From Paraspadella gotoi (Eukaryota > Animalia > Chaetognatha), in NCBI GenBank assembly GCA_051294375.1, contig CM119267.1, positions 25,621,293 to 25,685,292 on the forward strand: a DNA stretch of 64,000 nt, written 5' to 3'. Each line of letters opens with the position of its first letter. Positions within the stretch are counted from its first letter, which is position 1. Position numbers and translations under genes: made by a program. Positions 2,355 to 43,500 of this stretch are shown in pieces. The notes under the pieces were generated by a model. The model ran no database searches and had not been told where the DNA came from. It saw only the letters and a list, made by a program, of their open reading frames with translations.

Positions 2355-5300
2355 GCCTCGGGCTCGAGATTGGCTCCACATCTTTTGGTCCTGAGGCGCT
2401 GCTCTTCTTCTGCGACGTCGACATGCTCTTCACCCGGGGATTCCTCGAGCGACTTCGACGGGCGGCGATTCGTCACGAGCGCGTCTACTTTCCAATCGTC
2501 TATTCTCAGTACGACCCGAGATGGGTGAGTTTTCGCTGATCTCAAGTTGTTCAATTTTGCAGTTTTTGACTTTTTAATGAAATGAAATTAGTGCAACTAC
2601 TATGAAATTATCCATTCACTCAATAAACAACCTCTGATGGGTTAAGGCTTCCCATTCCTCTTACAAGACAATACTATAGCATGACCTCGTCGGATTTGAA
2701 TTAAGACTCTCTCGCAGTCTAGTTTATTAACTCCCAAAGTACCTGGCTTCCCTCTCTATGAAGTGTTATACTATTTTTATGATTTTTATTTTTATGATTG
2801 TTTAAAAGAACCATCCCTCAAGTAAAGCTTCGGCTTTTCAGGTTTACAACAGTGAAGACGTTCAGGCTGAAACTGATCTCGGTCACTTAACATTCCCTAA
2901 CGAAGAAGAGGAGAACGAGGATTCAGACTTACCAAAGCATCTGCGAAACCCTTACCTTGTCTCCAAAAATTCTGGCTATTGGCGGCAGTTCGGTTTCGGC
3001 ATCGTCGCTCTTTTCAACTCTGACTTCAGACGCGTCGGTAGGTCGCGTCTCTGTTTTTGTCTTTCTTTCCTTTATACCATGATGGAAAAAAAATTGTCGC
3101 GGTTACTTTCCAGCTATTTTTCGGCATTTTAATGTAAGAATCGAAAAATAAAATTTAGATATCGAGAAACTTTGGCCTCTGGTGATTCATCTGAGCTGTG
3201 TCTCATCTATGTATGACAAAAAATACAAGAGTTCCATGCAAAAAAAATTGAGTTGTCCAAAAAAATGCTTCGTTCTTTTTTATCTTTTTCATATCTATAC
3301 TTTTTATTTATATTAATTTCCGGTTCTTTTTATCGTCGCAATCGCTTAGCGTTTGCGACGATATTGTAATGCTTTTGCGCATAAGTGTCGTCGTCGGCGT
3401 TCCAAATTATAGATCGCCTTTTTTATGATTAAATTTGGGTGTATGAAGCTGACAATTTATATACAGCTTCTCATCATCGATGTGCTTAAAATTGGGTCAG
3501 GACAGTTATTAAATGTTTTGTTTACGTTTTATCGAAACAAACAAATTTCCTCTTATTTTTATGTTTCCTTCTCTCTCTCTTTTCTCTTTTAATTACAGCT
3601 CTCTTATTCTTTACTCCCAAGTAGTCCAGGGAATGAATAACTCATAAAGTTATCGTTATAATGAGCTAAGATTTTGTAAAAAGATGAAGGAAAATTTGCT
3701 CTATTGCCCACCTGATGGAAAATAATCAATTCAAAAATTTTGCGCTGAGGTCTTGATTTATTTTTTATTTTGTTTTGCTTCTAAAACAGCTATTTCTTTT
3801 TTAATTTGTTTTATTTTTGGTCCATATAATCGACTAACATGCCCGTACATATTGATGTAATTTCAGGGAGCTATTTAAAAAAACATAGGAGTTATCACAT
3901 AAAAATAAGTTTAAAGATTCTCGTCTAATAATATGCAAATATTTTGTTAAACTCTTAACGCTGATAAAGGCTGGAATTGTATGCTGAAACATGTCCGTTT
4001 TTCTATGAAAAAGAAAAATTGTTATTGAAAATATATTTAAAACTTTTTTCTATAAAAATAGCAAAATTACTTGTTTTATTAATTTAAGTATTAGGTTTTT
4101 TAATATTCGTTAAAAATATATATTACAAATTCTATATTTTTTATTTTTATTATTACTTTAAATTTATTTTAGTTTTGATAATCTAAATCTAAAAATATTA
4201 TATTAATAATGGGAGAGTGTTGTCTTCATTTAATTATAAAATATATTAAAAAGAATAATTAAAAAAATAATTTTGTAATTTTTTTCATAGATTCTCGACC
4301 AAAGAGGAAGAGAGAAAGAAAGAAAACTAAAAAATAAAAGAAGAAAATAAGAAAAAGTGAATAAAAAAAATTAAGAGCAAACAATTTTAAATGTTGAAAA
4401 AAAAATTTAAAAAAAAAAAATCAAGAAAGACAGAGGGGAAATAAAAAAAAAGCAAAAAAAGAAAGAGAAGGGGGTTGCAAAGATTTTAATACATTAAATG
4501 CCTTTCCATTTCTAACCAATTAAAACAAATGAGCAAGAAGCGAACACGCAGGGTTATTATAGCTTCCGGGTTCAATCCTTTATTCTAATTTTTTCTATCG
4601 CTCCCGGTTTCTCGTTCATCAAAAATCCTTTTGATTTCTTTCTTTTTTTCTCTCTTTCTTTCACTCTCTCTCTCTGCGTTTTATTTAAAAAAAATTGAAT
4701 GAGGATTGAACTTATAAAATGTAGCATCGCATTCGTGCATGTTATCATTTTGCTATCGCAACATCAAGTTTTTTTTGTTTTTTTTTCTCAGGGACTGCGT
4801 TTGCTGATCAGTTTATTTTTTGACAATGAAAATTTTTTTTTTCAGAAACTAACTTTAATTTTCTTTGGTACTTTATTATTTTTTTTTATTTAATTGACAA
4901 TCGCAAATAGAATTTTTCTTTCTGTTTATAAATTAATTTTCTTTTCTCAAATTTTTTTTTCTCAAGGGCTGCGTCTGCTGATCAGTTTATTTGACAATTG
5001 ACAATGACAAAAAAAAATTTGCATTTTTTTTCAGAAACTGTAACTTTAATTTTATTATTTTTTTTAATTGACAATCTCAAAATATAATTTTTTTTTGTTT
5101 ATAAATTAATTTTCTTTTCTCAAATTTTTTTTTTTAGTATCAAAATTTGTTGTCAATCCCGATTTTTCTTATGCGATTGCGACGATCCTTATGCTTTCAG
5201 CAGATACCGACTCTATAATTCACTTTGTTGGTCCGCCCCCTCAATATTGTCGGGCATTCACTTATATCATGTCAGAACATCGAATTATGATAAATTATGC

Positions 5301-10258: not shown

Positions 10259-13200
10259 ATGCTTTTCTCCAAAAGCGTTCATCCGATTACTTTCCGTGAA
10301 TTCATGTTGGAGGTAGTTTACGCTCCAACTTTTGATCTTATTTCACCTCGTTTGTTTGTGAGTAGTAGTTTTTTCTTCTTTTTAGTCGGATCTGCTTTCA
10401 GCAGATTCCGACTCTATAATTCAGTTTATAATTCACTTTGTCGGCCCGTCATTCCCACCCCAAAATATTGTCGGTAAATCATTATCATATCAGAACCTCG
10501 AATTATGATAAATTATGCAAAAAAAATGTCCGTCTGTCCGTCTGTCCGTCCCCCCTTAGCAAAAAACTCCAATTACTCGTGATTGGATGGATGGATTGGT
10601 ATGAAATTTTGTGTGTGGGTAGGAAACTGTGTGATTAAGATGGATATAAAGTTTCGATGTAATCGTGCGAGTTGAAATTGGTTTAAATGGAAAAAACAAA
10701 AAAATATATTTCACTATTTGAACGCCAATTGCTCATGAGTGGAGAGGGCAATTGACTTGAAATTTTGTATGATGGTAGGAAAGTGTGTGATTGAGCTGGA
10801 TATAAAGTTTCGATGGAATCGTGCGAGTGGCAATGAGTTAAAATGGAAAAAATAAAAGTCATATTTACTTGAAGCATTTTTACTTAAATTTACTCAAATC
10901 AATACATTTCTGTCAATTGTGTTCAAAATTTTAAAAAATGAAGGCTTGACTATGCAGTTTTCACTTAAAAAACCAGTTCATTTGATTGCTTTATCAATCA
11001 TTAAAGATTGCAAGAATTTAAACTTTTTTTTTATTGTGTAGAGAAGACAAAAGGCTATCCGAAACCGTACTGATATGTATGATTTCTTATATTTTACAAA
11101 AGATCTAGCAGGCTTTTTGGGAAAATGGAAAAAACGGCCTGACCAGTCAATTTAAATACCATTTTTTGGCATGATAAAATGGAAATTTCGATCGCGCTCT
11201 ACCTCCGTTGGCTTCCCAAGACGACAAGCTTTCAGAATCTGCCCATATTGATATAATTTTTTTGGGCCGTGACTATGCAGTTTTGAATAAAAGTGAAATA
11301 TAAAGGAATCTTGATCGGAGCTTCGATTCGAACGATGCGCATCTCTATTATTAGGACTAAGCTCTGACGAAAAAAGTCAGAGGTTTTTTAAATATATTCT
11401 TTGACTGGCCAATGAAGAATGATGGCAATATTGCTATTTTTAAGTTACAAAAAAATCCGACCATAAATATAGAAAATATTAACAAAATTCTTTGGAAAAT
11501 CCACCCCTTCTTTGGAAGATTTTTGCCATAGAAGATTTTTCCCGAATCTGACTCCCGGTTGAAAACTCTTAGAATTCCGATCGTTAGCTCCTCTTTTACT
11601 TTTACTTTAAATAAAAATTTCACCAAAATGGACTAATTCACTTTAACATGATCGTATCATATTAAAATAACTAAATAAAATGTAAAGAAAAATTTTGAGA
11701 GCCCTTCAGACATATTGCTATCGGATTCCTGAATTCGAAGTTTATTGTAAAATGACAACATACCTTAAATGCGTTGACATTGTATTGAAGTTGAGAAATC
11801 CCTTTATTTTATATATAAAAATTGCGTCAAAAATATTTTCCCGAGCGGACCAGTCCATTTGAATCGAATGGTTCGATGTCAAAATGATGGTTATTTGTCA
11901 AGAGAAAAAAAATGCGAGCCCTTGAGATGTAACAGGATCGGAATCCACTGTTTTTACATCTATTTTTTACCTGAATTTTTCCCAGGGGCGTTGACATTAT
12001 TTGGTAGTCAGATTTTAACGAAAATCTCCATTGAAAAAGTCTTCCTCGATTTCTAAGAACGACGTAGACTCCTACTATTATAATGTTAACATACCCTAGC
12101 CCCGTTTACAATTTTTGAAAAGCAAAATTTCCTGTTCATTTCTATAGTAAAAACAATGTTTAAAAATTCTCCGGAGATGACTAGTGCATTTCCCCTGGCT
12201 TGTTTGATATTAAATCCTTTATCAAATGCCATAAGACGAATTTGGCTAGCTCTTAAGATATAATGCTATCGGAATCGTGTGTTTTTACAACTGTTTTTTA
12301 CCCGAATTTCTGGCAATCTCGTTTGCAATTTGGGTAGTCAGATTTTAACGGAAATCTCTATTAGAAAACTGTTCAATTTTTTTTTAAGCGAGATTCTCGT
12401 CTACTTCTATATTACCACTTAATTATCATAGGAAGATCCGACATTGTTTGCTCAAACTTGTTAATTTTGTGATTAGAATAAATAACTTAATATGGTGGAC
12501 TAAAAAATCCACCATCGTTCATCAGCGGCCATTGGTGTGCAGGAGGCAAGTCATTCGCCTCCCAAAAGTCCAGGGTTCTAGCCCGGTGGTCGCCTAGCAG
12601 TTAAGAGGGACGGGGCGCTTAACCCGCCTGTAACACCGTGTTACAGCCTGATCTGAAGCTCAGGGACTGCATATATTGAACGGTTCTGTCGCTCATTCAC
12701 AACAATTATTACTGTCTCTTCATTAATAAATTTAGTGATACTGAAAAGTCTCTTGTTTTTCTCAGACGAAACGCCGTTTTTCGACCGAAGATTATACAGG
12801 TTTTCGTATTCCCATCGTCACTGGTCAAACCAAAAAAGATCTAAAACGGATTTTAAGAGACAAAGAGACAAAGGATTATTTCGCATTTTTGTCCAAGTCG
12901 CTTAATCTGCCTGGACAACGTAAGAGAAAATAATTGCTATTATTATTTCAAATCTACATAATATTATTTTTTGGAATTTCCAAGAATTGGCGATGGTTTT
13001 GTGCCAACAACATCCCCCGATTTTGACCTTGATCAAAGACCGAGCCAATTTTGAAGTAAAGGTGCGAGAAATAAAAAAAGGGTCTCCCATAAGAAACGGT
13101 CTCACTTTACTTTATACCTTTACAGATTTCCCACCTAATGGAATTAGGCATTACCAAAGATCGTTTGATCGAGGCGCCGTCCATCCTCTCCGTAGATGAG

Positions 13201-16200
13201 GCGTCTGTGAGAAAATGTCTTCGTCTCCTGACTCGCGAGGCGCCGTCAGAGTTGGAGATGGTCGGCGCGCATCCGCGATTTCTAATCCCGTCAACGAATG
13301 AGGCGTCGCGTCTCGCCGACTTTCGTCTCTTCGCCGAAACCGTCTTCCCGTACGCGACCAACGCCGAGTTTATGTCTGAGACGTTGAAGACGTCGAAGAA
13401 GACTATCTATCAGTTGGCGGAGAAGAGCTTTGCCATCCTCGAGCGGGGGTTCCGCTACGGAGCCGCCATCGAGGCACACAAGGCGCAGGGACTGAGCCCC
13501 GCCGTCATTATCAAACACTGGTCAACTTACAGCTCAATGCGATCAACCGTCTTGAACGAACGGCTCGAGTTGCTCTCGCGTCTGCAGCCTCACGTGGCAG
13601 AGGACGTCATGGATTCCGGACAAGTCTTCGCCTCGTCACATCAATTCTCTATTTATTACGTAGGGAAAATCTAATGGGTTGTGTAAATTCTTCATTTTTT
13701 ATCGTCGCAATCGCTTTTGGGCATAAGTGGCGTAGGCGTCGTCGTCGTCGGCGTTCCAAATTATAGATCGCCTTTTTGATGATTAAATTTGGGTGTATGA
13801 AGCTGAAAATTTATATACAGCTTCTCATTATCGCTGTCATTAAAATTGGGTCAGGACAGTTTTGTTTACTTTTTATCAAAACAAACAAATATCCTTTATT
13901 TTTATGTCTCCTTCTCTCTCTCTTTTTTCTTTTAATTATATGTAGCTATCTCTCTCTCTTTTCCCTAGTGCTACAGCTCGCTTTTTCTTTATTCGAAAAA
14001 GTTGAGGGAGTGGATATCTCTCAAACTAGGAGTTGATATCAGCTCAGCTTTGAGTAATAGATGCAGGAACCTTAGGTTTATTGCCCGTTTGAAAGATTTT
14101 TAAAAATTCAAAAAAATTGCGCTCAGCACCCCAAAATTTTTTTTTACAATATTTGCTTTAACGCGGTTATTAATGAAGCTTGTCCTATCATTTTTTGCTC
14201 ATAAATACTCCGAGACGAGGCCTATATAATGATGTCATAAAATTTTTGAATTAATTTTATTTTTTTTGTTTTAAAAATTAAATCACTCAAAAAATAATTC
14301 AAGAGTATTCTTAAAAGGTGCAAGGTAATTAATTCCATTTTTATATAAAATGATACTTTAAAGAAGACCAGTTTTAATGAAAAACAAATTAAATTTTAAA
14401 AAATTATTTTAAATACCAAAAATATTTTTTGAAAATTATAAAAATATATCATGGTCTTAAAACTAATTAAAATATTTTAAAAAATTAATGGGTTTGAAAG
14501 AGGACATTATGCTGATTCCAAATCTGTTTTTGTTTTTTAAATTTGATTATTCGAATATTCGTTCCTGTTTTACAGGCTCATACATTTGCAAAAATTAAGA
14601 AAATCACCCCTTTTTCAAACCCTAAACTGAACGGGTCCATGTATTTGAAAAAAAAAAGAAATTAACTTTAAAAAAGTAATATCTTCTTGCTATTAAAATT
14701 TTAAATGAGAAGAAAAGATTAGCAAAGATATCAAAGGAAGAAATGGTATTATTTAATTTTTAATGAAAAAAAGAATAAGATTTATCTTACCATGAAGGAA
14801 AAAAAAGTGTCGCGGTTACTTTCCAGTTATTTTTCGGCATTTTAATGTAAGAATAAAAATAAATTTACAAGAAAAATTAAAAATTTTAAATTCAAGAAAC
14901 TTTGGCTTTTTGTGATTCATATAAGCTGTGTCTCATTTAGGTATGACAAAATTCCATGTAAAAGAAAATGCGTAGTCCAAAAAAATGCTTCCTTCATTTT
15001 TATCTTTTTTATATCTGTACTTTTTATTTATACTCATTTCCGGTTCTTTTTTATTACTTTTTGGGTTTAACCAATACTATTAAAAATCCCTGCCATTATC
15101 TCCATTAGGATAGATTCAGGGATGAATCTTAATTCCATCAACGGAATGGACCTATAAACGGACTTGGTTGGCCTAGTGATGTGATTGCTCGTCTCCTTCA
15201 CGAATCATCAGAATGCCGACCAATCACAGACCTTACTTCAACCTTAGAATGACCAATGACCGACAGAGGAACCGACGGAGGGATTGATGGTCATTCAATC
15301 AATCCCTCCGTTGGTTCCTCTGTCGGTCATTGGTCATTCTAAGGTTGAAGTAAGGTCTGTGATTGGTCAGCATTCTGATGATTCGTGAAGGAGACGAGCA
15401 ATCACATCACTAGGCCAACCAAGTTCGTTTATAGGTCCATTCCGTTGATGATTCATATGTCAAAAAAAAGCAATATTAAAAATACATTGATGCTGTAAAT
15501 GTTATAGAATATTATTTTTAAATTGTAAAGTATCAATAAAAGTTATAAGGTTCCGGGTAACCTTTCTGTAAGCAAAGTTATAATTTTTATTTACCTTTGG
15601 ATGTATTATCAGAATCAAGTATCAAACAAGTCCAAAAATAAAAAATAAAGATTTTGTTGAAGTGAAAGACAATGAATTATCACATTATGCAGCAACAACT
15701 CAAGCCTGGTTTACTTTATAGAGGATCAATCTTTTTCACTGTTTGCTAAGGATCATTTTTTGTCACAAATCTGATTAAAAATATTATGTCAGAGATATAA
15801 TTTCAACAATAATATGAGTAGTTCTTTTAATCAAAAAGAAGTGAAAACAGTTAGAGACAACCTCTTTTGGAAGTATTTGAATACATTGAAAAATTTAATG
15901 CTGTTGAGAAATAATCATTTTATTCAGTCTTAGGGAGGTCATATTACCTATTAAAACTTATTTGTTAGCCAAAAATTATATTTGACAATAAAATTAACTG
16001 GCTTTTCCAAACAGCGGAACTTTTTTTTCCATCATGGTAATAAGCAATTGTAGCGTTCTACCGCCGCCTGCACATTGAAGCCATGGNNNNNNNNNNGTTT
16101 AATTGATTTATTGATTGATTGATAGAGTAGTTAATTAAACGATTAATTTTTTTGCTTGCCTTCATTTTCAAATTTGAATAAATTTCAAATTCTAATTTTC

Positions 16201-20794: not shown

Positions 20795-23700
20795 TTGAGG
20801 GAGAGTTTCCAACAAAGAATAAGGTAAGGGACAGTGGTCAGATGTGAGGACAGCTGAAGGTGAGGAGAGGGAAGAAGTAAGTCTTTGAAAAATGAAAAGA
20901 GAGTGGGAGAGAGAGAGAGAGCAAAGCAAAAATAAAACAATACATTTAGCAATGTTCAACAGAGATAAAGTGCAAAAATAAACCTAAAGATAAACTGAAA
21001 TTAAATGTGAACAATAAAAAATGAATTAGTAATAAAGTGAAATTTTAAATAGAAAAGTAAGTGGTGAGGGATAGATAAGTGAAGAAAAGTGAAAGTAAGT
21101 AAAAGAAAGAGCTCAAAAATGAGCTGGCCCCCCCCCGGCCGGGCAAATGGAGGACGTTGACGATAAGGTCGGGTCATTGGCCTGTCATAGGTTGCGAGGG
21201 TATACTTGTAGAGTTTGACATGCTGGGATCCGGAAGAGATCCACCTGGGAAAATGCCGAGTGCTACTCGTATATCCCTTTGGCCTGATAAGCCTGCCGAT
21301 AGCCCTCCTCTCACCTGACGGTGAGGCAGGCAGTTGCCTGTTCTGGCCTGTTTTGCTACAGGAGATACAGACTCCTCTCCCTCCTCCTGAAGCCGTCGTT
21401 TTGGGCGACGCTCGGCGCGAGGAGAGTCGCGCCAAGTTGCTACAGGCTCGGAAAGGTATCGGACATCCATTGCCTGCTGAGAGGCCTCCGCCTGACCCGT
21501 TGAGTAAGGACGGGGGAATCATTGTGCGGTTGGGGTGGCTCTGGGCGTTTCCTACCACCATTTGGATAAGCGAATCATAGCTTGGAGGGAGGTCTAATTG
21601 TCCTCCATCACGGTTCAGAGAGGGTTCGAGAGCTTTGATGTAGATTGCCTCTCTAATACCTCTGGAAAACCAGTTTTGGTCATGGGACAGCACGAGACAG
21701 TCAGTTTCTCTGAACAGATGGCCAGAATTTGCCGTGTGCTCGGCAATGGCCGATAAGTAATGACCACGTGGGTCCCAATATGGCTTTGAGTGCTGCTTGA
21801 ACCGATCTGTCAGAGACTTTCCTGTCTCGCCCACGTATGCTGCTGTGCAGGGTTGGTTGCCCTTCCCTGCACAGGCCGCCCAGTAGATGGCTCCTGATGT
21901 TTTCGGTCTGGGGATTTTGTCTTTCGGTTTCACCAGTTGCTCACGTAAGGAGCCGCGGGTCGTCACTGCACTGGAGATCCCCTGCTTTGCCAGCACCCGC
22001 ACCAGTGCTTCAGTGATCCCCTGGTGGTAGGGGAGGGAGACATGACCCACGTTCCTGAGACGCTTCTGCTTATCTCCCACTTGCGCTGTGGTGGGCGCGG
22101 TCGGTCCTTCAGCAGCAAGGTCTCGTTCGTCCTCCTGGGGGGCGGAGGTTGAACTTGCGTCAGCAGTTACTTGGGCAGCCCCTAGGTGGCCACTGCCCTC
22201 AGCCAGGTTCAGCAGGAACCTTACCTTCTCGTAAGCCCACAGAGGGTAACCATTGAGCGCCAAGGCTCTTTTGACATGCTCAAGCTCGGCGGCCTGGAGC
22301 TCGGGGGTCGACGGAATCAGCTGAGCTCTTCTGGTAAGGGATCTGACCGTGGCGAGCTTGTGCGACAAGGGAGCATGCGAATCAAAGGGAATGTATTGAT
22401 CAGTATGCGTTGGTTTGCGATAGACAGAACTCCAATGAGCCGCCCTCTTTGCGCTTTATAAGCACATCAAGCATTGGAATTTGACCATTCTCCTCCTTTT
22501 CGCAAGTCCACTTGATACTCGCTTCGATGCTGTTCAAATGGGTCAGAAGGGTATCAACCAGATCCCTTTTCACGGCCAGAATAGTATCGTCTGCTTTCCG
22601 ATACCAGAAGAGGACTGACTCTGCCCCATGCAGAGATCGAAAAGAAGCCAAAGCTTCCACCTCATAGTCCTCCATATAAAAATCTGCCAGAGGACTTGAA
22701 GCGGACTTGCCCATCCCTAAGCCACCAGGCTGGGCATAGTACCGTCCATCGAACCTGAAGTACGCCAGTTCCAGGTCGAGCCGCAGCAATGCCATGATAT
22801 CATCCAATTGCACTGGCGTACGCTCGTGCAACAACCGGTCTCCCTTCAGGCGGCGCTCTGCTGAGGCTAACGCCAGTCCCTGAGGGATATTAGTAAACAT
22901 GCTTGTTAAGACGCACGAGACCAAGAGATGAGTATCTGGCACTATGATATGCTGCAACTTTTCCGTCAGATCAAGAGAAGATCAACAATGAAAAGAGAGT
23001 ATATACATTATGTTATCTATTATTTAATTATTCAATCAATTTATTTATAAATTAATTATTTAATCAAGTCAATCATTATCGGCATTATTGTCGTCAACGC
23101 CATCATCGTCGTCTTTCCTTTTGTCATGGTCAGTGATGAAAAGACCTAAAAACAAACATTTCGGATCAAATTAATTAATTTTTTAAATTATTTTAGTTTA
23201 TATAGTTTGTATTAATTAATTACCGCTAATGATCGTGGGCAGATCCGACATTGTTTGCTCAAACTTGTTTAGTTAAAACTTATAGAAAATAAAAATTTTA
23301 GCTTTGAAAAAAAATTGTCTAATTAAACCTCGAAATATATTAATAAAAAATTTTTTGCATGCTCCTAAATTATTATACTAACTAATGAATATAAAAGAAA
23401 TTAAAATGTTCTTCTCAATTTTTTTTACAATAAATTTAAAATTGAATTATCAAGTAAGAGGGGAAAAATTTGGCAAAAAAAGCTGCTGAAAAGCAAGCGT
23501 ACCAGTTGTTATGATATAAAGTATTTTCAACTTGTAATATCAATATCAATCATATTGAGTTAGTTAAGAGTAATAACAAATCTTTTCATTTCACTCCGAT
23601 TTGAAATCTGTGTATTGAGCAATTAGAAAACAAGTTTGAGCAAACAATGTCGGATCTGCCCACGATCATTATCAGTAATTCATTAATTAATAATTGAATT

Positions 23701-26608
23701 ATTCAAGTTAATTAATTAGGCAATTTATAATCAATTTGATCCCAAATGTTTGTTTTTAGGTCTTTTCGTCACTAACCATGGGCAGTGATTTCTATCGAGG
23801 AATTTAGCAAAAAAACCACTTTTTTCAATATTGTTAGAATATTACCAACAAAAATGACTAAATTTTAACTCTAAGACAAAGTTGGCTAGACTACAGATTA
23901 ATTGAAATCATCTGCTGTATTTTCTAATCAAGAATCAATATCATTTTTGCTATTTTTAATTAAAAAAATTATGTCCATTTTTGTCCATTTTTTATTCCGG
24001 CTTTTGGGTCCTTATCTTCTTTACCACTGAGTTGGTTCATTTGCCGTTAGTCATCTATTGTTTGCCTATGAATTAATTTTTAAATAGACTAGTCAAAAAC
24101 TTATATTTTTACATTTTATTACAATTTGTTAAACGAAAATACTTCAAAATGTCTACAATTCTAATCAAATATTCCCTATTGTTGGTGCTTCTGGTACCTG
24201 AAAAATTAGGGCAAAAAATGTAATAGTTTTGCTGCATTTGTATTTGATATAAAAGGAAAAATAAGCCTAATCAATTAGTGAAACAGGTTTTTTGTTTTTT
24301 CCATTTAAACTCATTTCCACTAAGACGATTCCATCGAAACTTGATTTCCAGCTTAATCACACACTTTCCTACCCACATACCAAATTCAAGGTCAATCGCC
24401 CTATCCACTCATGATCAATTGGTGTTCAAATAGTGAAATATATTTTTTTGTTTTTTCCATTTAAACTCATTTCCACACGGACGATTCCAACAAAACTTCA
24501 TATTCAGCTCAATCATACACTTCCCTACCCACACACAAAATTTCATTCAAATCCATCCTTCCAATCACAAGTAATTGGTATTTTTTGCTAAGGTGGGACG
24601 GATGGACGGACAGACGGACGGACGGACATCGTTTTTTTTGCATAATTTATAATATAAGAAGACTCGTATGTGAGTCGAAACATGTCCGTTTCACTATGAA
24701 ATAAAAATCGTTGTTAAATCTCTCTTCAAACTTTGTTCATAATTTATCATAATTCGATGTTCTGACATGATATAAGTGTGTTCCCGACAATATTGAGGGG
24801 GCGGACCGACGGACCGACAAAGTGAATTAGAGAGTCGGGATCTGCTGATAAGCAGATCCGACTAAATTTTTTTTTTTCAGTTGCTGCATCTTCTACATGG
24901 TGACAATTTTACAAGCGCTGGTAGAAATATGCTGTCATTTGCAAACCAGTGGTTATTTCATTGATTTTAAAAATTAGTTGAGTAGAAAATACTAAAACTA
25001 TTTATGTATTAAAATTTTATATTGATCAGTTAAGATATGCCTTGACAATGAGTGGAGAAAGTTGGCTTGTCAAATTGGGTTTCATTTTTCAACTCGCTGT
25101 TTTTAATTTTTTTTTTTCAACTTTTAGCACTTTTTTAAACAAAGTATTTATTAAAATATTAACAATATTAATATCCTCAGAAAGCCCTTAAAAATATGAA
25201 GAGATTGATATACTTACAAAAGCTCTAACATAAAAAGTAAGCTGCCCAGCCTTGGTTCAATTAAGAGTGTCAAAAATGAATTATTTTCAATTTTAAATCT
25301 TTTTTCAAAATATATGACCTGTTTAAATTATTATAACAAAAAATATTATTATTTATATAAGTATCATGAAAGAGCCTGAGAAAAAAAGATTTAAGATAGC
25401 CAATCACAATTTGATAAAAATTATAAATTTACTCTCCAGCTATTGATTTTTAAAAAGATGTCTCGTTTTTGAATATCCTAATTAAATTAAAGCTGGGCCA
25501 GTTAAATTTTATACTACAGTATTCATAAGTATATAATTCTCTTCATATTTTTAAGGGCTTTCTGAAGATATTAATATTGTTAATATTTTAATAAATACTT
25601 TGTTTAAAAAAGTGCTATAAGTTCCCCAAAAAAATTAAATTTAAAAACAGTGAGTTGGAAAATGAAACCCGATTTGACAAGCCAACTTTCTCCACTCATT
25701 GTCAAGGCATATCGTAACTGATCAATATAAAATTTTAACACATAAATAGTTTTAGTATTTTCTACTCAACTAAATTTTAAAATCAATGAAATAACCACAG
25801 GTTTGAAAATGACAGCGTATTTCTACCGGCGCTTGTAAAATTGTCACCATGTAAAAAACGCGGTTGAGCTGAAAGTTACGTGTCTCTCTCTCTTTCTAAG
25901 CTTTTAAGATTTTTTACTTAGCCTTTTTCCCCTTTATCCAGCGGACCTGAAATCTTCCGCCATCATTCTCTCTTCGGCGCGTCTCTCTACAACATCGGGC
26001 GGGCGATTCACTTCGTGCGAGTCGAGTTCGACTTAAACGAGGATCGCATCGACGACTGCTACTTGGAAGCGGTCGCCGCTCGCGTCGCCCGCGGTCGCGT
26101 CTCCCGCGAGTACAACCTCGTCTCTAGATTTTCGCTCGGCCGTCTCGCGGAGATTTTGGACACGACTAGTGATTCGTTGCAGGACGAAGCCAACGTTTGG
26201 ACGAGAGGAAAGTTTAATAAATTCCTTAACTCCGCCGTAGTTTGCTTGGAGGAGAAGAAAAAGGAGGAGAATGACAATAACGAGGATGACGGATTGGAAG
26301 TGAGAGAGTCCCCTGTCGTAGGAAAACGTTGTATGTCGAGACGAGACGACTACGACCTCCACCCCTGGGCGACGATCGAGGACAACGTGAATCTTTTGAC
26401 TCAATCGGGATTTTCCAAAATTTCAATTCGAAAATGTTTGTTTTGTCTTCTTTTTCCAACGGAATCCGTTCGGGCGGCGATATTTGAGGTCGGCGATAAC
26501 TCGGACCGAACGATGTCGATTCGTGAGCAAATTCGGAGACTCAACTTGATCGGTTATCGGTTGGAGAGGAAGCAAGGGTCGTGGAAATCCCTCTCGCAAA
26601 GCCAATAA
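10259..26608 (+). CDS. mTERF-family (mTERF5/mTTF-like) mitochondrial protein; exons 10259-10312, 12766-12919, 12985-13061, 13126-13659, 18083-18285, 25942-26608
   Basis: Phase-consistent GT-AG splicing gives a continuous ORF with a presequence-like N-terminus (MLFSKSV...RRFS) and mTERF-like repeats (ISHLMELGITKDRLIEAPSIL; IQEVIRFLKDSGFS; NVNLLTQSGFSKISIRKCLFCLLFP...LNLIGYRLER). First exon and family assignment are less certain. Confidence 0.62.
12525..12712 (+). mobile_element. tRNA-derived SINE with a twister-ribozyme body
   Basis: Head GCGGCCA...TGGTCGC (acceptor-stem pairing) with A-box-like TGGTG, B-box-like GGTTCTAGCCC and a Gly-like TCGCCTCCCA arm; short simple-repeat tail. Confidence 0.65.
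12597..12670 (+). ncRNA. Twister ribozyme, type-P5, in SINE body; predicted cleavage 12620/12621
   Basis: P5 GCAGTT/GACTGC; P2 GAGG/CC-C; GA; T1 CGG/CTG; mini-P1 GGCGCT; U^AA; GC; P3 CTGTAAC/GTTACAG; P4 CCTGA-TCTGAAGC-TCAGG. Confidence 0.75.
14790..16037. mobile_element. Second copy of the CCATGATGG-TIR MITE
   Basis: TA|CCATGAAGGAAAA...TTTTCCATCATGG|TA; body matches 3077-3330 plus ~5910-6588. Confidence 0.75.
15136..15450. mobile_element. 315-bp foldback MITE (near-perfect palindrome), 4-bp TSD ATTC
   Basis: ~150-bp arms CATCAACGG.../...CCGTTGATG; empty site visible in the paralogous host copy at ~6011-6032. Confidence 0.85.
17887..17929 (-). ncRNA. Degenerate Penelope-type hammerhead
   Basis: Minus strand ACG-CTGATGA-AAGC...CC-GAAAC-ATCTA-CGT; stem II and the cleavage triplet have decayed. 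Confidence 0.5.
19584..20324. mobile_element. hAT-like MITE fragment nested in HINE-B
   Basis: Begins CAGGGTTGGCA with AAAAAACCCA subterminal motifs; interrupts the HINE-B sequence TCGTGATT...; the other end is truncated. Confidence 0.5.
20631..23011 (-). mobile_element. Penelope-like element, 5'-truncated: RT (22957-22400) frameshifted into GIY-YIG endonuclease (to ~21600), 3' UTR with hammerhead
   Basis: RT motifs TSMFTNIP, GLGMGKSAS, YRKADDT, IPMLDV; GIY-YIG AIYWAAC...YVGETGKSLTDRFKQH...SAIAEH...REAIYI...LNRDGG; flanking 13-bp duplication GTTATCTATTATT (20618-20630, 23012-23024). Confidence 0.92.
20676..20721 (-). ncRNA. Intact minimal type I hammerhead ribozyme of the Penelope element
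   Basis: AGCA-CTGATGA-A-GGCTC-taactgact-GAGCC-GAAAC-AT-GTC-TGGCT: canonical core, 5-bp stem II, palindromic ACATGT stem III. Confidence 0.85.
24656..24692 (+). ncRNA. 5'-truncated Penelope-type hammerhead plus tail
   Basis: AAGAA-GACTC-gtatgt-GAGTC-GAAAC-ATGTC followed by the family tail motif AAAAATCGTTG. Confidence 0.5.
24896..25851. mobile_element. TA-flanked MITE with ~310-bp TIRs (Tc1/mariner-like)
   Basis: TA|CATGGTGACAATTTTACAAGCGC... / ...GCGCTTGTAAAATTGTCACCATG|TA; arms ~24896-25203 and ~25538-25851. Confidence 0.85.
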
Positions 26609-32500: not shown

Positions 32501-35500
32501 TACGCCCTCCAAGCGTTGGACATTTATACGGTCAACCTGAGCTCAACGACTGGCCAGCCGACCATCCGTCCGGCGGCCGTGCAATGTGTTCGAACCAAAG
32601 AGGAGAAGGAAGTGCTGGATCACTTTGCCGGCGTCTTCACCATGATGAACCCTCAGACTTTCAAGGAGGTCTTCACCGTTACAATCGAATTCATGGTGGA
32701 ACGAATCTACCACAACTACGCCCTGCAGATTGTGGCCAACTCTTTTTTGGCCAACCTCACAGCCTCGGCCTCCTTCGCCACCATCCTCGTCGAGTATCTA
32801 TTGGCGAGAATGCCCGAAATGGGTACTAACATGGAGCGCTCTAATCTTTATCTTAAACTCTTTAAACTTGTCTTTGGCTCTGTCTCTCTTTTCGCGGCCG
32901 AGAACGAGCAAATGCTCAAGCCTCACCTCCACGCCATCGTCAATAAGTCCATGGAATTGGCGATGACGGCGAAAGAGCCTTTCAACTATTTCCTTCTTCT
33001 GCGCGCACTTTTCCGTTCCATTGGTGGCGGAAGTCACGATCTGCTTTACCAAGAGTTTCTTCCACTTTTGCCCAACTTGTTGCAGGGCCTCAATTGTCTG
33101 CAGAGCAGTCTTCACAAGCAGCACATGAAGGATCTTTTCGTCGAGTTGTGTCTGACGGTTCCAGTGAGGCTGTCTTCCTTATTGCCCTATTTGCCAATGC
33201 TGATGGATCCCCTTGTTTCCGCGCTGAATGGATCTCAGACGTTGGTGTCTCAAGGCCTTCGAACTTTGGAGCTCTGCGTTGACAACCTGCAGCCGGATTT
33301 CCTTTATGAACACATTCAGCCCGTGCGCGCGGAGTTGATGCAGGCGCTTTGGCGGACGCTGCGCAACCCTAACGATAATATCGCTTTCGTCGCCTTCCGC
33401 GTTCTGGGAAAATTCGGCGGCGGAAACCGAAAAATGATGCGCGAGCCGCAGCAGATCGCATTTAATAAATGGACGACGCCGGAACCGAGCGTTCTTATCC
33501 ATTTCCAGGATCGCAACGTGCCCGGAAATTCTCCTGATCCGATCCAATTGCCCGTCGAGAAGGCAGTGGAAGTCGCTCTCGCGGCACTAAAATCATCTTC
33601 CTCTGATCCTTTTGATCGCAATGAGGCCTGGAACGTTATTCGCTGCTTCATCGTCTCCCAGATAAACCTAGACGACTCTCGTTCAAATTTAGAGCAATTG
33701 TTTAAACATCCCTCGTTCCACGAAGGTCCTATCTATTCATTCAGTCCACCCTACGAGTGTCCCGACCCGCACACCCGCCAGGTTCATTTGGATGCGTTGT
33801 CGGGTCTTTTCGTCGCGGCGGCAATTAAGGAATTACGATCTCAGGTCCTGCCGACAATGGCCTCTCTCGTTCGGCACTACACTATGGTGGCCGTGTCTCA
33901 ACAAGCCGGTCTATTCGCTCTCGGCGCCGAGAAAGCCGCCTCAATGTTTTTCATGGATCCCCACGTGATCGTCGACGCTTTGGCGGCTGTCATGGGGCAC
34001 GAGGAAAAGGAACTCTGTAAACCAGGGAACCTCGCGCTCTTCTGGATGTTGGAAACCGCCGTCACTTTGGTGGGATCGAAGCGACGCGCTGCCCAGTTGC
34101 CCCTCTTCGAGTATTTGTCGCAAAGTATGTGCGCGCTATGTTACGACCGGGCCTGGTATGCCAAGCTTGGAGGTTGCCACGCCATTAAGTTCCTCTACGA
34201 AAACATGGCGCCTAAATGGGTATTAGAACGCGCCTTTTCATTCTTGAAGGCGCTTCTCTTCGTCATGATGGATCTGACCGGAGGGGTCTCATCTGGCGCC
34301 CTCGATATGGCTAAGTCCAATCTGAATCAACTCCTCATCCTTATCGCCAAAGAGCCGTTGGTTGAAACCGGGTCTCATAGCGTGGAGGACAAGAATCACC
34401 TTTTAGAGGTCCAACGCAAAGCTCTTTATGAAGTGACTCATGAACTCGTTCGCCAAATCACCTCGCCCAACACTACTGTCAGGGATGAAGCGATGCGCTC
34501 TCTCAAAGTATTGGCCGATAATCAGTCCCCGCCAAAGACGGTGACGGAGGTCATGTCTCCCCACAAAGAGCAGCTGGTCGAAATGGTGCCGCCGAAGAAG
34601 CACCTGCTTCGCCTGCAACCCGTCAGTGCTCAAATCGGCATCATGGAGGGCAACACTTTCTGCAATACTCTGCAGCCCCGCCTCTTTGCCATTGATCCCA
34701 ATGTCAACGAGAGCAAACCTCACGTGATCTTCGTGACGGAGCTGATTACTCTGTGCGACACGGACGACGCCTCCCTGATGAAAGTCCCTTGCTACAAGAC
34801 GGTCACCAACCTGATTCCCTTGCGCAAGTCAGCGCTCAGGGCCCTCGCAGCCTGCCATTACATCCCGCAGCACAGAGAGAAAATCTTTGGAGTTCTTTAC
34901 AAGGCGATCAACTTGAACACGGAACTGCAAGAATTTGCGTTTGAATGCATGAAGAATTTCATCAATGGATGCAACGTGAATTTTGAGCAGGTCGTTGTAT
35001 TTTTGAATGTTTAAAAAAAAGTTATGCTGTGGCGAATCCTAAATTCGCCTCCCGTATAGCTTGGTGAAACACAGCTCGTCCCATTGGCTTGGACAGCTGA
35101 GTACTCATTCACCAACCGTGAGTTCCGGGTTGAATCTCCTCACGGTCACGCTGGTTAAGTGTGCTGGTGTCGGCGTAAACACGCCAGTGACGTGGGGTGG
35201 TCACTGCAGGTCCAAAGCTCTGAGCGCCGGCTGTCGGGAGATGTCTCACACCCGGGGCATCACGCATGTCTCCCTGATGCCATAATGAACCTTTTTAATT
35301 TAAATTATTTTTGTTTAATTTAAATTTTATTTTAATTTTATAAGCTTCGGGTCTGGTTTTGGGAGTATTTTATTCGACCTTAATTTCCCCTCAGGTTCAC
35401 ACGGCCATACGTCCCTTGCTTCAGCTTCTGGGCGATTATCAAAATCTGACCCTCAACGTGATCCAGCGTCTCTCCTACTTGACTCAGCTATTTCCCAACA

Positions 35501-38500
35501 TCTTCAACGAGAAACTCTGCATCCAGATGATGGAGCATCTCAAGAAGTGGATGGAGTACTGCGTGACGACGCAGAAGACTCGCTCCAAGAGCGTCGGCGT
35601 TGAGCTCAAACTCTGCGCCGCCATCATTGACATCTTCCCTCTCATCCCCGCCGCCTCGAAAAAGCTCATCAAACCCTTGGCTGAAGAAGTCCTTAACGGC
35701 GAGAAGGCTATGCTCATGGAGGTCAGTCCCAATTCTTTTTATTTTCTTTTTTAGTGGCTCATTTTCGATTTCCGAGTTTTTTTTATAATAGCACTGTTCT
35801 TTATGATACCCGAATTATCTTCAAATTTTTGTTATAAGTTGTCATTTTATTTCAATGGGACTTTACAAAAATATTACTAACTCATGAATTTGCTGAAAAA
35901 TATTGATTATTGAAGCTTCGACCATCAGAGTTCAATCATCCGTCGACCAAAATAGTTTTTAACGCGAAAACTGGAAAAATATTATATCGCTTTTGTTGCT
36001 AGTTTGATCGCCGTCGCCAATGCGTAGCTACGTGCTGTTCTTATGAGCACGTAAAAACTTGAGCTTCTGAAATGGTTAATAAAATCCCCATTATGGTGAC
36101 ATGTAAATTATTTTTTTAATATTTGGTGATTAGTTTAAATCCAAATACACAGGAAACTCATGCTTCACGAAATCTAATGATTAACTTTCTTCATAATGTT
36201 TTAAAAAATTGTCTTCGTCAAAATAAATCGCATGTACAAATAAAAAAAATTTCATTTCGCGCGGCCAGAGCCTCTAAAATGGATTTGTCCAACATTCGCG
36301 CCAAATACGGCGACGAAGAAACTAGTTTCGCTGAGAAGCAACTCGTTTCTCTCGATCCCTTCGTTCAATTCGCGAGTTGGATAAACGAAGCCTCGAAGCA
36401 AGAGTCTATTCAAGAAGCCAACGCCGCTTGCCTGTCGACGGTGTCTCCGAGCGGCCGCCCGTCCTCGCGCTTCGTCCTTTGCAAAGGCTTTTCCGGGGAT
36501 TCGGGATTTCGTTTTTTCACTAATTACGAGAGTCGCAAAGCGCGGGACATCCGCGGCAACCCCAACGTCTCCCTTGTCTTTTACTGGGAGCCGCTTCATC
36601 GCTCTATACGCATCGAGGGCGTCGCGAAGAAGATCTCCCCCGCGGAGAGCGACGGCTACTTCCAGGCGCGGCCAAAGGAATCGAGGATTGGCGCGCTTGT
36701 CTCGGCACAGTCGACTCCCATTGCCTCGCGTGACGTGCTGCGATCGCGTAACGCAGAGCTCGAGGCCGAGTTCGAAAAGGGCGAGGTGCCACGCCCAGAG
36801 TGGTGGGGTGGATTCGACGTCGTCCCCGAAATGATCGAGTTTTGGCAAGGACAAAGCAACAGGCTCCACGATAGGATTGTCTTTTACGCCTCACACGCAG
36901 AAGATTTGAAAGGCGTTCCCGAGGAGTTGTTAAAACAAGGAGAGGGCGACTGGAAATACTGTCGGCTTTCTCCTTAAATCTGTCTTGATAAAAAAATAAA
37001 AAAAAAAAAATAATTTTGGTTGCATAAGTTTTTTACAAATTTTTGGTTGATTTTTTAATGTTAGCTTTTTTAACCGTCTCGAAAAGCGATAACTGCAAAA
37101 CTTATTTTTTTACATAAAATTGTTTCTGATACACTGAAAATATCGATGAAGGTTTTTTAAAGATTAATCTTTTCCGTGGTGAATTCTTTTCTCCCTTTAC
37201 CTCTTTAACAGGTCGGTTCTTGCCTCCACGAGCCTCTCATGAATTTCTTGCTGAAGTATCCTCAACAAACATTGGATCTCTTTCTAAGCGAAGTCAAGTT
37301 TAAGGATCAACAATGGAATCGTTATTTGCATTACATGTTGAAACAGGAAGCAGGTCTGCTTTTTAATTCAGAACCCACATATTTATAATTATTATTACAT
37401 TTATTAAATATTCATTCTCATCTAAAATTCAGGTCACCCGCTTCGTTTAATATTGCAAAGCAATCCTACCCAACTGATGAACATGGCCGTCGGGCATTTG
37501 CCCGGGATGCCGTCGTCTCAGCTCACTCCTCAAGTCTTCAACGAGATCAAGTTTCAAACGATCAACATTATTTATCAACTCGTTAAGCAAGATCCCAATT
37601 GGCTCCCGCAAAATCCAAACATCGCCCTCAACTTGCTCAAGATCTTTATTTCGGAGGCTTTTCAGGGTCGACACAAAAACATCGACTCTGTAGACTTTGC
37701 TCATTGGAAAGAACCGAAACTTTTAGTGAAGTGCATCCTTAATTTCGTAGAGCATCACCCCGACCAACTCGAACTTCTCTTTCACCTTCTCCGCGCCTTC
37801 GTCTCTCGGTTCATCACTCAGTTTCAGTTTCTTAAAGATTTCCTCGAAACTAAAGTCGCCAAAACTTATTCCGTCGAGTGGAAGCGAAAGGCTTTTTTCA
37901 AATTCGTTGACATCTTTCATGACAATTCATGGCCGCAAGAAGTGAAGGGCAAAATACTGCAACACATCCTCATTCCATCTTTCGCTCACTCTTTCGAACA
38001 GGGCGAGGGGGAACAACTCATCGGCGGCCCGCCCTCACCCGACCAAGACAACCCCGACAACGTGATCAGCGTCTTTATCGGCAAAGTTATCGATCCCGAC
38101 AATCCTTTTGGCACCTGCGACGCTGTTCGTATTCTTCTGCTGCAGTTCTCCTGCCTTTTGGTGGAAAAGGCCGCCCCTCACATCCACGACGCGGCCAACA
38201 AGCGGCAAGGGACGCGACTCCGACGTCTCATGACCTTCACATGGCCCTGTCTTTTGGCAAAAAACTACGAGGACCCCGCCTCCAAGTACTACGGCCATCT
38301 GCTCCTCGCCCACATCATCGTCAAGTTTGCCATTCACAAGCGGATCGTCCTCCAGGTCTTTCACAGTCTTTTAAAAGCCCATGCGGTGGAGGCACGCCAA
38401 GTCGTCCGCCAAGCTCTGGAGATACTGACTCCAGCAATGCCTGGCAGAATGGAGGACGGTAACACCATGCTGACCCACTGGACCAAAAAAATCATCGTCG

Positions 38501-40554: not shown

Positions 40555-43500
40555 AGGAGGATTTAGCCTGCCGTCCAATTCTCCTTTTCCTCTTCTTTTT
40601 CTTTCGTCCTCCTCCTGCCCCTCAGTAAATTTTTATCGTCGCAATCGCTAAGGCTCTACGTACGATCGATGTCTTTTAGACAACGAAATCTAAACTTCAA
40701 TAATTACCATCTTTTTTGATCTCATTAGTTAGTATGAAGCTTACTTCATTTAAAAAAACGGTAGTCTCAAGTTATCTCATTCTTATCACTTAGAACTTCC
40801 CAGGTAAATTTCTATGAGTTAAAAATACGGTAAGACATGATTTCTTCAATGATTGTTTAGCTAATCTCATTAACTGTGTAATTTTAGATATAAGTATGAA
40901 ATTGGTACAACCAATATAAAAATTATTCCATTCATTTAATAAATAAGCTATCTTGCCCCTAACTTTGGACAGGCTTAGGTGGTTTAAGGCCTCCATCACT
41001 CTTACAAGATAATGACATAGCAGGTCCCTACAAGCTTTCAATCAAGACTCTCTCACAGTCTCGTTTATTCACTCCCAGAGTACCTGGCTTCCCTATCAAT
41101 GAAGTGGTATAATATTTCAAAGAATGTTTCAATTGTATGAAAAGACCACTCCCTTAAGTATTAGATCAGGGAATACTTATTGTACTCCGCACTAGCATCA
41201 AAATACAAGGAGCTGAATTTTATGAAATTGGTACAACCAATAAAAAAATTATCCATTCATTTAATAAATAAGCTATCTTGCCCCTGACTTTGGACAGGCT
41301 CAGGTGGTTTAAGGCCTCCATCACTCTTAACAGATAATGACATTGCAGATATAAGTATGTTCGAATTTTTATGGTATAGATAAATTTTAAAGATCGAATT
41401 CCTCATGAGAATCTTCACGTCTTTTACTTACATAAAAGTTTTTAGGTAAGACGCCACATTATCTGATACAATTTTTTTTTTCATACGCTTTCCCTGATTC
41501 TTTTTCTTCACTTCTTTTCTTCTCTTTCTTTATATTTTCCTCTTCCTCTTTTCTCCCTTACTTCTCACTCTGTCACTTACAATTTTTCGGCCCCTACCTT
41601 TTTCTGCCACTCATGCACTTTCCTTACCTTTTTTCTCTCCTTCTCTCTTTCCCTTTCTTTTCCCCTCTTTTTCTTTCCAATTTTCCCCTCATTTCCTACC
41701 TTTTATATGTCTCACTATTTTTTCCCCCATTTGCTTATTTTTTTTTCCTTTGGCCCCCTCTTTCATTTTCTTCCATTCTCCTTTTCTTGTTTCTCTTTCC
41801 TCTTCCCTCTCACTACATTTACATTGAGCCAAATCAAAGAAATTCTTTAATAAGCATATTAAGAGAGAAAATGAACGGTAACGCATGATTTTTATTTCAA
41901 TTTTGGTTGCCTAGCAAATTTAGTAAATCGACAGATTTTGCGGAAAATTTTTCCGCAAAATCTGTCGATTCTCAGAAAAAACAAGTCCTGACGCTTTCCA
42001 TTGGCTAAAAGGATGCGGTTTTTTTTTGTTTTATCAACGTCAGTAAGTACCCCATCTTTTAAAACCAATAAATGAGTTGAAAATATTTTCTTTATCATAA
42101 ATAAATGCAAGTCACAAAAAGTCACAAATTAAAAGTTGTCTTTAAAAATTATTTGTGGCTAAACGAAAAGAGTTTTTTTGATAATTTTGTAGGTGTTGAA
42201 AGCTTATTCTGTGGACTATATTTTCTGTTAGTTTAAACCAATTTAAACTATTTTTGTTTAATAAATTATAATAAAAACTAAAACTACGACTTTTTGACTT
42301 GTCAATTTTAAAATTAATTTATAAGTGAACTATGAATGATATAAGGAAAATATTTTACTCAAGGTGAAGAAGATAAGGAAGAAAGGAATTCCAAAAGAAA
42401 AAAAATTTTCTCAACTTTCCTTGGCATTCAAATTTGAAGACAAAGTGAAAATGGACAAAAATGGACATGATTTTTTTTCTTAAAAGTTGCAAAAATGTTA
42501 CTCTTATATGATTAGAAATAGCTGGAGATGGTTTTAACCAATCCGTACTTTGGCCTAATTTATATTATGGTGCAAATTAAATTAATTTTGTTAATAGTAA
42601 CTGAACAATACTGGAAAAAGTAGTTTTTTCTCTGAATGCAAGGATCGTAAGCAGAGGCCTAAGCGTTTGCGACTATATAGTAACACTTTTGCGCATAAGT
42701 GCGTCGGGCGTCGGCGTCGTCGGCGTTCCAAATTATAGATCGCCTTTTTATGATTAAATTTGGGTTTATGAAGCTGAAAATTTATATACAGCTTCTCATC
42801 ATCGATGTGCTTAAAATTGAGTCTGGACAGTTATTAAATATGTTTTGTTTACATTTTATCAAAACAAACAAATTTTCTCTCTTTTATTTTCATATTTCTT
42901 CTCTCTCTCTTTTTCTTTTAATTACATGTCTCTCTCCCTCTCTCTTTCCCTATTCACTGATTCATAATCATAGGGAAAAAAAACGAGTCTGCAGCTGGCT
43001 CTGCAGGGCATATCTTTTTCTTTATTTTCTCCTGCTGCTTTTGCTGCTGCCTTTTGAGTCTGCAGCTGCTCTGCAGGGGCTCTCTTTTTCTCTCTTTTCT
43101 CTTGCTGCTGCCATTTGATTTCTTTCTTTTCTCTCTCTCTGTGTTTTTATGAAAAAAAAAATTGAATTGGGATTGAACTCGTAAAATTAGGCATCGCATT
43201 TGTGCATGTTATCATTTTGCTATAGTAACATCGGGTTTTTATTTCACTTTATTCTTTACTTCACTTCGTCAGTCTGATTCAAGTTTCACTTTGTCTTTTG
43301 TCTGGGAATGATGACAGTGTTTAGAGAGGTCGCATTCGATCAAACTGCTCCCTTATGCGTGCTTAAAGTAAAACAAAAGTACCTTCAATAATGTTACTCC
43401 AGTCTTAGCACTTGCTAAAAATTAAACTCGAAAATAAGTTATTTTACTGTTTTATATTTATTCTTTTGCCAATGAAAAAGGTTTTTTTTTTGTTTTTTGT

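Follow-up and report, generated by a model that had tools for sequence, protein, structure and literature searches.

In this work, we are presenting an analysis of a solo long terminal repeat (LTR) located at 35028-35284, plus strand, of a 64,000-nt stretch of DNA from the chaetognath Paraspadella gotoi (contig CM119267.1, positions 25,621,293 to 25,685,292 of the forward strand), referred to below as the window. The repeat lies in sense within an intron of the TRRAP gene. We consider it fairly probable that this copy, itself likely dead, comes from a high-copy non-coding LTR family in which every LTR carries a covarying twister fold of the P5 type, and which likely propagates as an animal LTR retrozyme. 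A complete element, a terminal-repeat retrotransposon in miniature (TRIM), is located at 6948-7693. Six ribozyme cores of the window were compared: two from the LTRs of the TRIM (subfamily A), one from the solo LTR (subfamily B), one from a further LTR-like copy (subfamily C, copy C), which makes four LTR copies, and two from a pair of repeats near 41 kb (D motifs).

Twister fold and its covariation

When mapped on the rice twister (Osa-1-4 numbering, PMC5113685; PMC6154101), the LTR cores appear as a P5 permutation that also has P3, the order of parts being P5, P2, G-A, pseudoknot T1, a P1 of 2 bp with a tetraloop, U|AA, P2, GCC, P3, P4 with its loop L4, and P5. In the solo LTR the fold occupies 35150-35231, with P5 at 35150-55/35226-31, P2 at 35159-62/35179-82 and T1 at 35165-67/35212-14, and, within 35168-35222, P1 at 35168-69/35174-75, pseudoknot T2 at 35183-84/35217-18, P3 at 35186-91/35200-05 and P4 at 35207-10/35219-22. 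Cleavage is predicted at U|A, between 35176 and 35177, by analogy to rice U6|A7; G35163 is the predicted general base (rice G45), and C35164 stands at the class A position (rice A46), where it is rare among copies. Both TRIM LTRs and copy C keep U|AA, GCC, the L4 motif U...AAGC and GA, while the solo core departs from the twister consensus by C35164 in place of the A46 equivalent. The cells of T1 and T2 are paired throughout (100%), and two of the three T1 pairs, as well as one of the two T2 pairs when the D motifs are included, are compensatory. A descriptor with enforced pairing gave two strict and three relaxed matches in the window, against no strict and one relaxed match over 20 block-shuffled windows. 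At the Rfam gathering threshold nothing in the window matched, the solo core reaching 16.2 bits (E 1.2) with the twister-P1 model.

Such scores below threshold would also be expected if a twister-derived fold were kept for a non-catalytic job, for example packaging or helper recognition, and the minimum free energy under the nearest-neighbour model, which leaves pseudoknots out, favours other folds by 13-18 kcal/mol in all six cores. We regard this explanation as remote, given that 6/6 cores retain the catalytic G, the U|AA site and the two pseudoknots, and five of them GA. A misfolding hairpin over the cleavage site of the solo copy was considered as well, but the six cores show a similar energy gap to the twister fold, and the idea was abandoned for that reason.

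The preliminary description of the solo LTR had quoted covarying pairings in P2, T1 and P5. All of them are present, but at the top of P2 the TRIM has a C.A mismatch, so no covarying pair stands there. The mismatch is the majority state of subfamily A, with no variant at or above 4%, and its rice equivalent, G44A, has a relative activity (RA) of 0.97, i.e. is fully active. The T1 swaps between subfamilies A and B correspond to double mutants that are active in the rice twister (C27G/G47C, RA 0.86; C27A/G47U, 0.83; singles 0.17 and 0.42). These deep-scan values were obtained by counting columns in the supplement matrix, where the A46G diagonal agrees with the tabulated value.

When the three cores of subfamilies A and B are aligned with MAFFT, pairing holds in 94% of cells, and 6/27 pairs are changed on both sides. 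Of the six compensatory pairs, A versus B, two belong to T1, and P5, P2, P1 and P4 have one apiece; P3 and T2 are identical between these subfamilies, covariation of P3 being seen with copy C and that of T2 with the D motifs. Controls with slid pairing gave 0-1 compensatory pairs in this alignment, and 0-2 overall when copy C was included. Because two of the three aligned rows are near-identical, A versus B was simulated directly: with 19 random substitutions over 54 paired columns, at least six compensatory pairs arose in 0.017-0.025% of 200,000 trials, and as many pairs were retained in at most 0.006%.

Copy C extends this series. A covariance model of the three cores (R1), built without copy C, finds it at 12594-12673 with 24.1 bits (E 5.9e-5), within an LTR-like stretch at 12491-12673 (plus strand), whose ends are uncertain and which is devoid of the 3' hairpins. 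Its twister (12597-12670) has an intact GA, a predicted cut at 12620/12621, a P1 linker of 6 nt and a P2 5' strand of 3 nt, and the stretch shares with the other LTRs the 5' hairpin, the CCACCATC block and CCATTGG. With copy C added, 13/27 pairs are changed on both sides, P3 now among them, which supports the earlier proposal of selection on twister RNA structure across a diversified LTR family. The same description took the solo copy for a diverged offshoot of the TRIM LTR; it turned out to be a member of its own high-copy subfamily B, therefore the covariation is a record of selection in two lineages and not in the solo copy.

A second covariance model found, on the minus strand around 41 kb, the two D motifs, which are of P5 type but have no P3. 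They lie in a unit (40890-41345, minus strand) made of a pair of AT-rich direct repeats, each about 125 nt long and spaced by 325 nt, antisense in a large TRRAP intron. Each repeat holds one motif with intact GA, T1 UGG/CCA and a compensatory T2 (AC/GU); against Rfam Twister-P5 the motif scores 24.6 bits (E 0.007; gathering 37.6). The short P1 linker and the P2 bulge are common to the D motifs and copy C and may therefore be a real variant rather than decay. The unit is flanked by an 8-13 bp repeat and no primer-binding site (PBS) was found in it; to judge from its sequence it may be a non-LTR retrozyme with a twister. At 41458, minus strand, TGTGGCG followed by a hairpin stands 148 nt above the first D cut site, and the distance from LTR start to cut is 148 nt in subfamily A and 149 in subfamily B, a match in spacing that reflects either chance or shared ancestry. 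A third covariance model gave nothing further credible in the window, a pattern scan of metagenomes returned three matches, none with twister pairing or LTR context, and scans of viral contigs returned one unrelated match and then none.

The solo copy and its subfamily

The termini TGTGGCG...GCCATA and the length of 257 bp reported for the solo LTR hold. Its equal length with the TRIM LTRs is true within 2 bp (255 and 258 bp), and the low identity claimed is confirmed as well (57.7% in global alignment, the blastn match covering just 44 nt). Spans of this length with these termini occur in the window in the solo copy and in the two LTRs of the 6948-7693 element, and nowhere else. Placement in sense within a TRRAP intron is equally sound: the intron (34991-35394, plus strand, 404 nt) has GT..AG borders in the exon map, keeps the frame, and is removed by splicing in contig 25 of run X9. 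The left target-site copy ATGC (35024-35027) is followed on the right by ATGA at 35285-35288, a match at 3/4 positions.

Further parts of the solo LTR recur in its relatives. The 5' terminal hairpin GGCGAAT/ATTCGCC (35031-35049) has counterparts with other inner pairs in subfamilies A and C. The CCATTGGCT block (35081-35089) includes CCATTGG, common to all three LTR types, an inverted CCAAT box or the start of a box-A-like site, and at 35128-35137 lies a box-B/T-loop-like motif, which is degenerate in the solo copy; the remaining copies have different letters at 35132 and 35137 and agree with GTTC.A..C. The 3' hairpin GATG...CATC (35240-35261) is conserved in sequence with subfamily A. Of the two flanking hairpins described before as kept, the 5' one thus stands, its inner pairs differing in the three LTR types, while the 3' GAUG/CAUC one is kept by sequence, does not covary, and is absent from copy C.

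The copy number of the family was judged from public contigs of the same organism, in four (X2, X5, X8, X9) of 11 listed runs. Per DNA run, 1890-7285 contigs matched subfamily A and 981-2170 subfamily B, and both are very high-copy; we state no more precise figure because summed depth over single-copy depth for A varies several-fold between runs, from about 6,000 to 27,000. Contigs end at the 35027/35028 junction of the solo LTR (115, 100 and 53 loose ends in X2, X5 and X8), and the ends of subfamily A are fixed likewise, with contigs stopping at 6948 in 75/77/51 cases and at the 3' end in 161/130/90 (X2/X5/X8). Flanks at the LTR termini of both subfamilies are ATAT-rich. Depth of the TRIM internal region is a fraction of the LTR depth, so full and solo forms coexist, and in 11 X5 contigs a B-like LTR end (24/30 letters, by eye) is joined to the same PBS region as in the TRIM, from which subfamily B probably has full-length members. 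In the subfamily A core the letters of the window prevail, and variants at or above 4% are confined to three P3-loop sites and to 7140, where the variant restores a P4 pair. Run X9, guessed to be RNA, has both LTR families; trace DNA would look alike, and the run was not used as expression evidence. The left-flank contigs extend just 28 letters into the solo LTR, too short to score its presence or absence.

The change from GA to GC at 35163-35164, noticed before, is real in the window, but its effect is probably abolition of cleavage and not mere weakening. Position 35164 is A in 99.5, 99.7, 99.4 and 98.7% of contig depth (X2, X5, X8, X9), and the non-A depth in X5 (40) is close to the single-copy depth (38), which is consistent with C being real at this locus. 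Rice A46 is one of four positions where every change lowers activity below 0.2 (PMC5113685); A46C has an RA of about 0.09, near the assay floor, and no second mutation raises it above 0.19. By this comparison the solo copy is probably catalytically dead. Its private divergence is about 5% (~13 changes in 257 nt): among the differences listed, X2 depth shows a different base in 88-99.5% at no fewer than 12 positions, and from loose ends one base is missing near 35156-35158.

The core change had been thought to matter for TRRAP, and C35164 could indeed have been selected, if a fast intronic ribozyme aborts splicing, or slow cutting could tune the transcript. Splicing can be aborted by fast intronic ribozymes, not by slow ones (PMC2995048), the intron has just 404 nt, and all four private changes in the ribozyme stems and 3' hairpin leave G.U pairs. 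We find such a role decidedly improbable. With ~13 changes in 257 nt, drift alone would hit one of the 4 most intolerant sites with 19% probability, one of 10 with 40% and one of 15 with 54%, so that about 5% private divergence explains the core hit by chance and its importance for TRRAP is not borne out. Moreover, the box-B-like motif of the solo copy is damaged too, an intact TRIM stands in sense directly past the stop codon of a neighbouring gene, and slow cutting fits poorly with A46C near the assay floor and no second mutation bringing it above 0.19. The solo copy is probably an inactive relic, valuable as evidence for the family.

The complete element and its possible propagation

The TRIM at 6948-7693 (746 bp, plus strand) consists of two LTRs, a PBS-like site, a polypurine tract (PPT)-like site and a non-coding centre. 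The LTRs (6948-7202 and 7436-7693) are 96% identical, and both twisters, at 7069-7149 and 7560-7640, have an intact GA (G7082-A7083 and G7573-A7574), with predicted cuts at 7095/7096 and 7586/7587. Two bases past the 5' LTR lies the PBS-like TGGTGAGCCCTAC (7205-7217), an 11/13 match to the complement of tRNA-Trp, the reference being the honeybee tRNA printed in PMC10886601, Fig. S2. A short purine tract (7427-7432) precedes the 3' LTR by 3 nt, and the target-site duplication (TSD) CCAC (6944-6947) is repeated at 7694-7697. The longest stop-to-stop frame of the TRIM (142 aa) has no Pfam match, a scan for hammerhead cores found nothing inside the LTRs, and AATAAA, TATA(A/T)A and TTTT are absent from every LTR examined in the window.

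We infer every step beyond this DNA anatomy, and cleavage, circles and helper are predictions. A transcript starting upstream of the ribozyme in the 5' LTR, or a host read-through transcript, would be cut at U|A in both LTRs. The two cuts would free a monomer of 491 nt (7096-7586) with a 5'-OH and a 2',3'-cyclic phosphate and without an R repeat, which host RtcB would close into a circle holding one whole LTR. RtcB circularises the monomers of animal retrozymes, and tandem twisters yield circles in mammalian cells (PMC7229834); for plant LTR retrozymes the same anatomy and mechanism are described (PMC4918200). A Ty3/gypsy helper, primed by a tRNA (Trp-like), would then reverse-transcribe the circle, and the integrase of that helper would insert LTR-internal-LTR or solo copies with 4-bp duplications; the PBS match and the 4-bp TSD point to a CsRn1-like gypsy helper. 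The solo copy would afterwards have drifted by about 5% and lost its core adenine.

As to the promoter, subfamilies A and C and the majority of B copies have GTTC.A..C at 36-44 nt below a box-A-like site, TGG.. (frequency in shuffles 1.2-1.8% per 60 nt). By sequence, these motifs hint at a Pol III promoter, and the CCATTGG block is equally readable as an inverted CCAAT box; no tRNA cloverleaf was detected in the LTR (ARAGORN, 0 genes). Tentatively, and with more doubt than confidence, one may picture old, diversified, very high-copy animal LTR retrozymes resembling a natural 'Tornado' cassette, with a tRNA-type Pol III promoter, twin twisters, an RtcB circle of ~490 nt, a gypsy integrase and ATAT sites.

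A different use of the ribozyme, as a 3'-end cutter only, would make the family ordinary TRIMs. The inverted CCAAT box ~95 nt upstream would drive transcription from a start within the 5' ribozyme, at under 13 nt above the cut; only the 3' LTR would then have a complete ribozyme, and the linear RNA, its R being very short, would be reverse-transcribed. CCATTGG is kept in three LTR types at a plausible promoter distance, the LTRs have no poly(A) signal, a P5-type ribozyme requires sequence upstream of its cut, and an R of 18 bp is known from Cassandra (PMC10886601). We nevertheless hold this account to be unlikely, since the upstream LTR halves of the three types fold strongly as RNA (z -3.1, -3.6, -4.1) and contain the T-loop/box-B-like motif, which suggests that they are transcribed, and no TATA box was found in the LTRs.

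The repeats could also be pseudo-LTRs belonging to a non-autonomous retrozyme of Penelope-like (non-LTR) type, with target-primed reverse transcription as the route of insertion in place of an integrase. The animal retrozymes known to date derive from Penelope-like elements (PLE; 10.64898/2026.07.22.740005), and the D unit at 40.9-41.4 kb has a long flanking repeat and no PBS. Little credence is due to this origin for subfamilies A and B, which have fixed TG..TA ends, 4-bp flanks, ATAT preference, PBS and PPT, whereas animal non-LTR retrozymes are described without LTR, PBS and PPT and with longer TSDs (PMC7229834). Besides, the Penelope-like element of the window ends in a hammerhead-like core, not a twister.

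Several points weigh against propagation as an LTR retrozyme or against its evidence. The predicted circle is not unusually folded (z -1.4; 5/60 shuffles as stable), no helper element was found in the window, and no gypsy domain among the 73 open reading frame (ORF) references scanned with Pfam. The PBS of the TRIM deviates from the published tRNA-Trp at two positions, and its PPT is short; the TSD of the solo LTR has one mismatch (ATGC/ATGA), and copy C is without a matching TSD. Lack of TTTT arises by chance in 34% of shuffles. Rfam twister-P1 scores are 15.6-16.2 bits against a gathering threshold of 67.2, and P1 has only 2 bp in these cores, although P1 is dispensable in the rice twister (PMC5113685). 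Just three independent LTR lineages were aligned, and alignment A5, with copy C, was fitted to the nested structure, its two P1 counts resting on a 2-nt loop in copy C.

The TRIM begins, in sense orientation, 10 bp past the stop codon that ends a chondroitin-synthase (CHGN) ORF (6618-6938), and from this position its two predicted active ribozymes may sit in the 3' untranslated region of that gene. Its location inside an intron at 6841-7758 was rejected, as the CHSY3 alignment continues through that GT. The internal region contains, at 7240-7336, three copies of a ~28-nt unit and a CT microsatellite. Near 7233, a few contigs in three runs leave the TRIM interior ~30 nt past the LTR into other sequence, a second internal type that may belong to subfamily B or to a helper.

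Known systems and other features of the window

There is a close likeness to plant LTR retrozymes (PMC4918200), which are non-coding, shorter than 1 kb, and have a self-cleaving motif per LTR, a 4-bp TSD, PBS, PPT and many solo LTRs. The present family differs from them by its animal host, a P5-type twister instead of a type III hammerhead, a tRNA-Trp-like instead of a tRNA-Met PBS, and LTRs of about 255 bp instead of 300-400; its 491-nt monomer and the circles are predicted. With the type-P5 twister (Rfam RF02684, clan CL00120) the cores share U|AA, G-A, GCC, the L4 motif U-NNN-AAGC, two pseudoknots and ends open in P5; unlike it, they have both P3 and P5, a P1 of 2 bp and a non-canonical T1 (CGG/CCG, CCA/UGG, CUG/CGG), and score under Rfam gathering. 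Helenus (TRIMp3) elements (Kojima 2024, PMC10886601) are likewise animal TRIMs with a 4-bp TSD, a gypsy-type PBS and box-A/box-B-like LTR motifs, whereas in the present family a tRNA is not recognisable and the motifs lie in the 5' half of the LTR, above the ribozyme. The main text of that paper does not use the word 'twister', and none of four twister motifs occurs in its consensus file.

Metazoan non-LTR retrozymes (PMC7229834; 10.64898/2026.07.22.740005) are also animal and non-coding with a ribozyme at both unit ends, but their ribozymes are type I hammerheads, their units are tandem repeats that have no LTR, PBS or PPT, and their TSDs are longer. T-variant twisters of Perere-3 in Schistosoma (PMC8501958) are tied to an animal retroelement too; there a single P1-type ribozyme stands at the 5' end of an autonomous non-LTR element. 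The CsRn1 clade of Ty3/gypsy (PMC2582038) shares the tRNA-Trp PBS and the 4-bp TSD and is the candidate helper; its elements are autonomous, and none was found in the window.

In the available parts of the literature, LTR retrozymes are described as hammerhead elements of plants, the retrozymes of animals as non-LTR, and twisters in connection with RTE/Perere-3 elements (PMC7761336, PMC7229834, PMC11722881, PMC9695139, PMC6765202, 10.64898/2026.07.22.740005). One review, in its available part, mentions unpublished type III hammerhead elements in insects, and twister-bearing circles are reported from metatranscriptomes, without LTR context (10.1101/2022.07.19.500677). No twister in TRIM LTRs and no animal LTR retrozyme was found in the open literature; subscription papers, Repbase or bioRxiv supplements could hold one. 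If the proposed life cycle is true, the family would provide the first LTR retrozyme from a non-plant host, and also the first example of a retrozyme with a twister. It would mean that the strategy of a ribozyme in the LTR and a circular template arose or spread more than once, with the ribozyme class interchangeable, and would give a testable job to full-length eukaryotic twisters, the role of which is mostly unknown. The family supplies a P3+P5 twister variant missed by Rfam together with thousands of natural variants for covariation, and is large enough to ask whether active ribozymes are purged from sense introns.

The best named matches of TRRAP are spiralian, namely molluscs, nemerteans and an annelid (68-70%); in a quick tree (29 rows from 120 matches) the window stands on a long protostome branch, and its fork with priapulids and arthropods is left open. 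An intronless gene of the PNPO family (36120-36977) is nested in sense within a TRRAP intron. On the minus strand, 21001-22981 reads in translation as a Penelope-like element of reverse transcriptase/endonuclease type in two frames (no Pfam match), with a hammerhead-like core in its tail at about 20717 and a similar core, also minus, at about 17925. A reverse transcriptase of non-LTR type (RVT_1, E 7.6e-17) lies at 1-2025, minus strand, where a different frame holds a PHD finger. Two long inverted repeats resemble miniature inverted-repeat transposable elements, one at 15136-15450 with 153-nt arms 9 nt apart, the other at 24886-25861 with 232-nt arms 512 nt apart.

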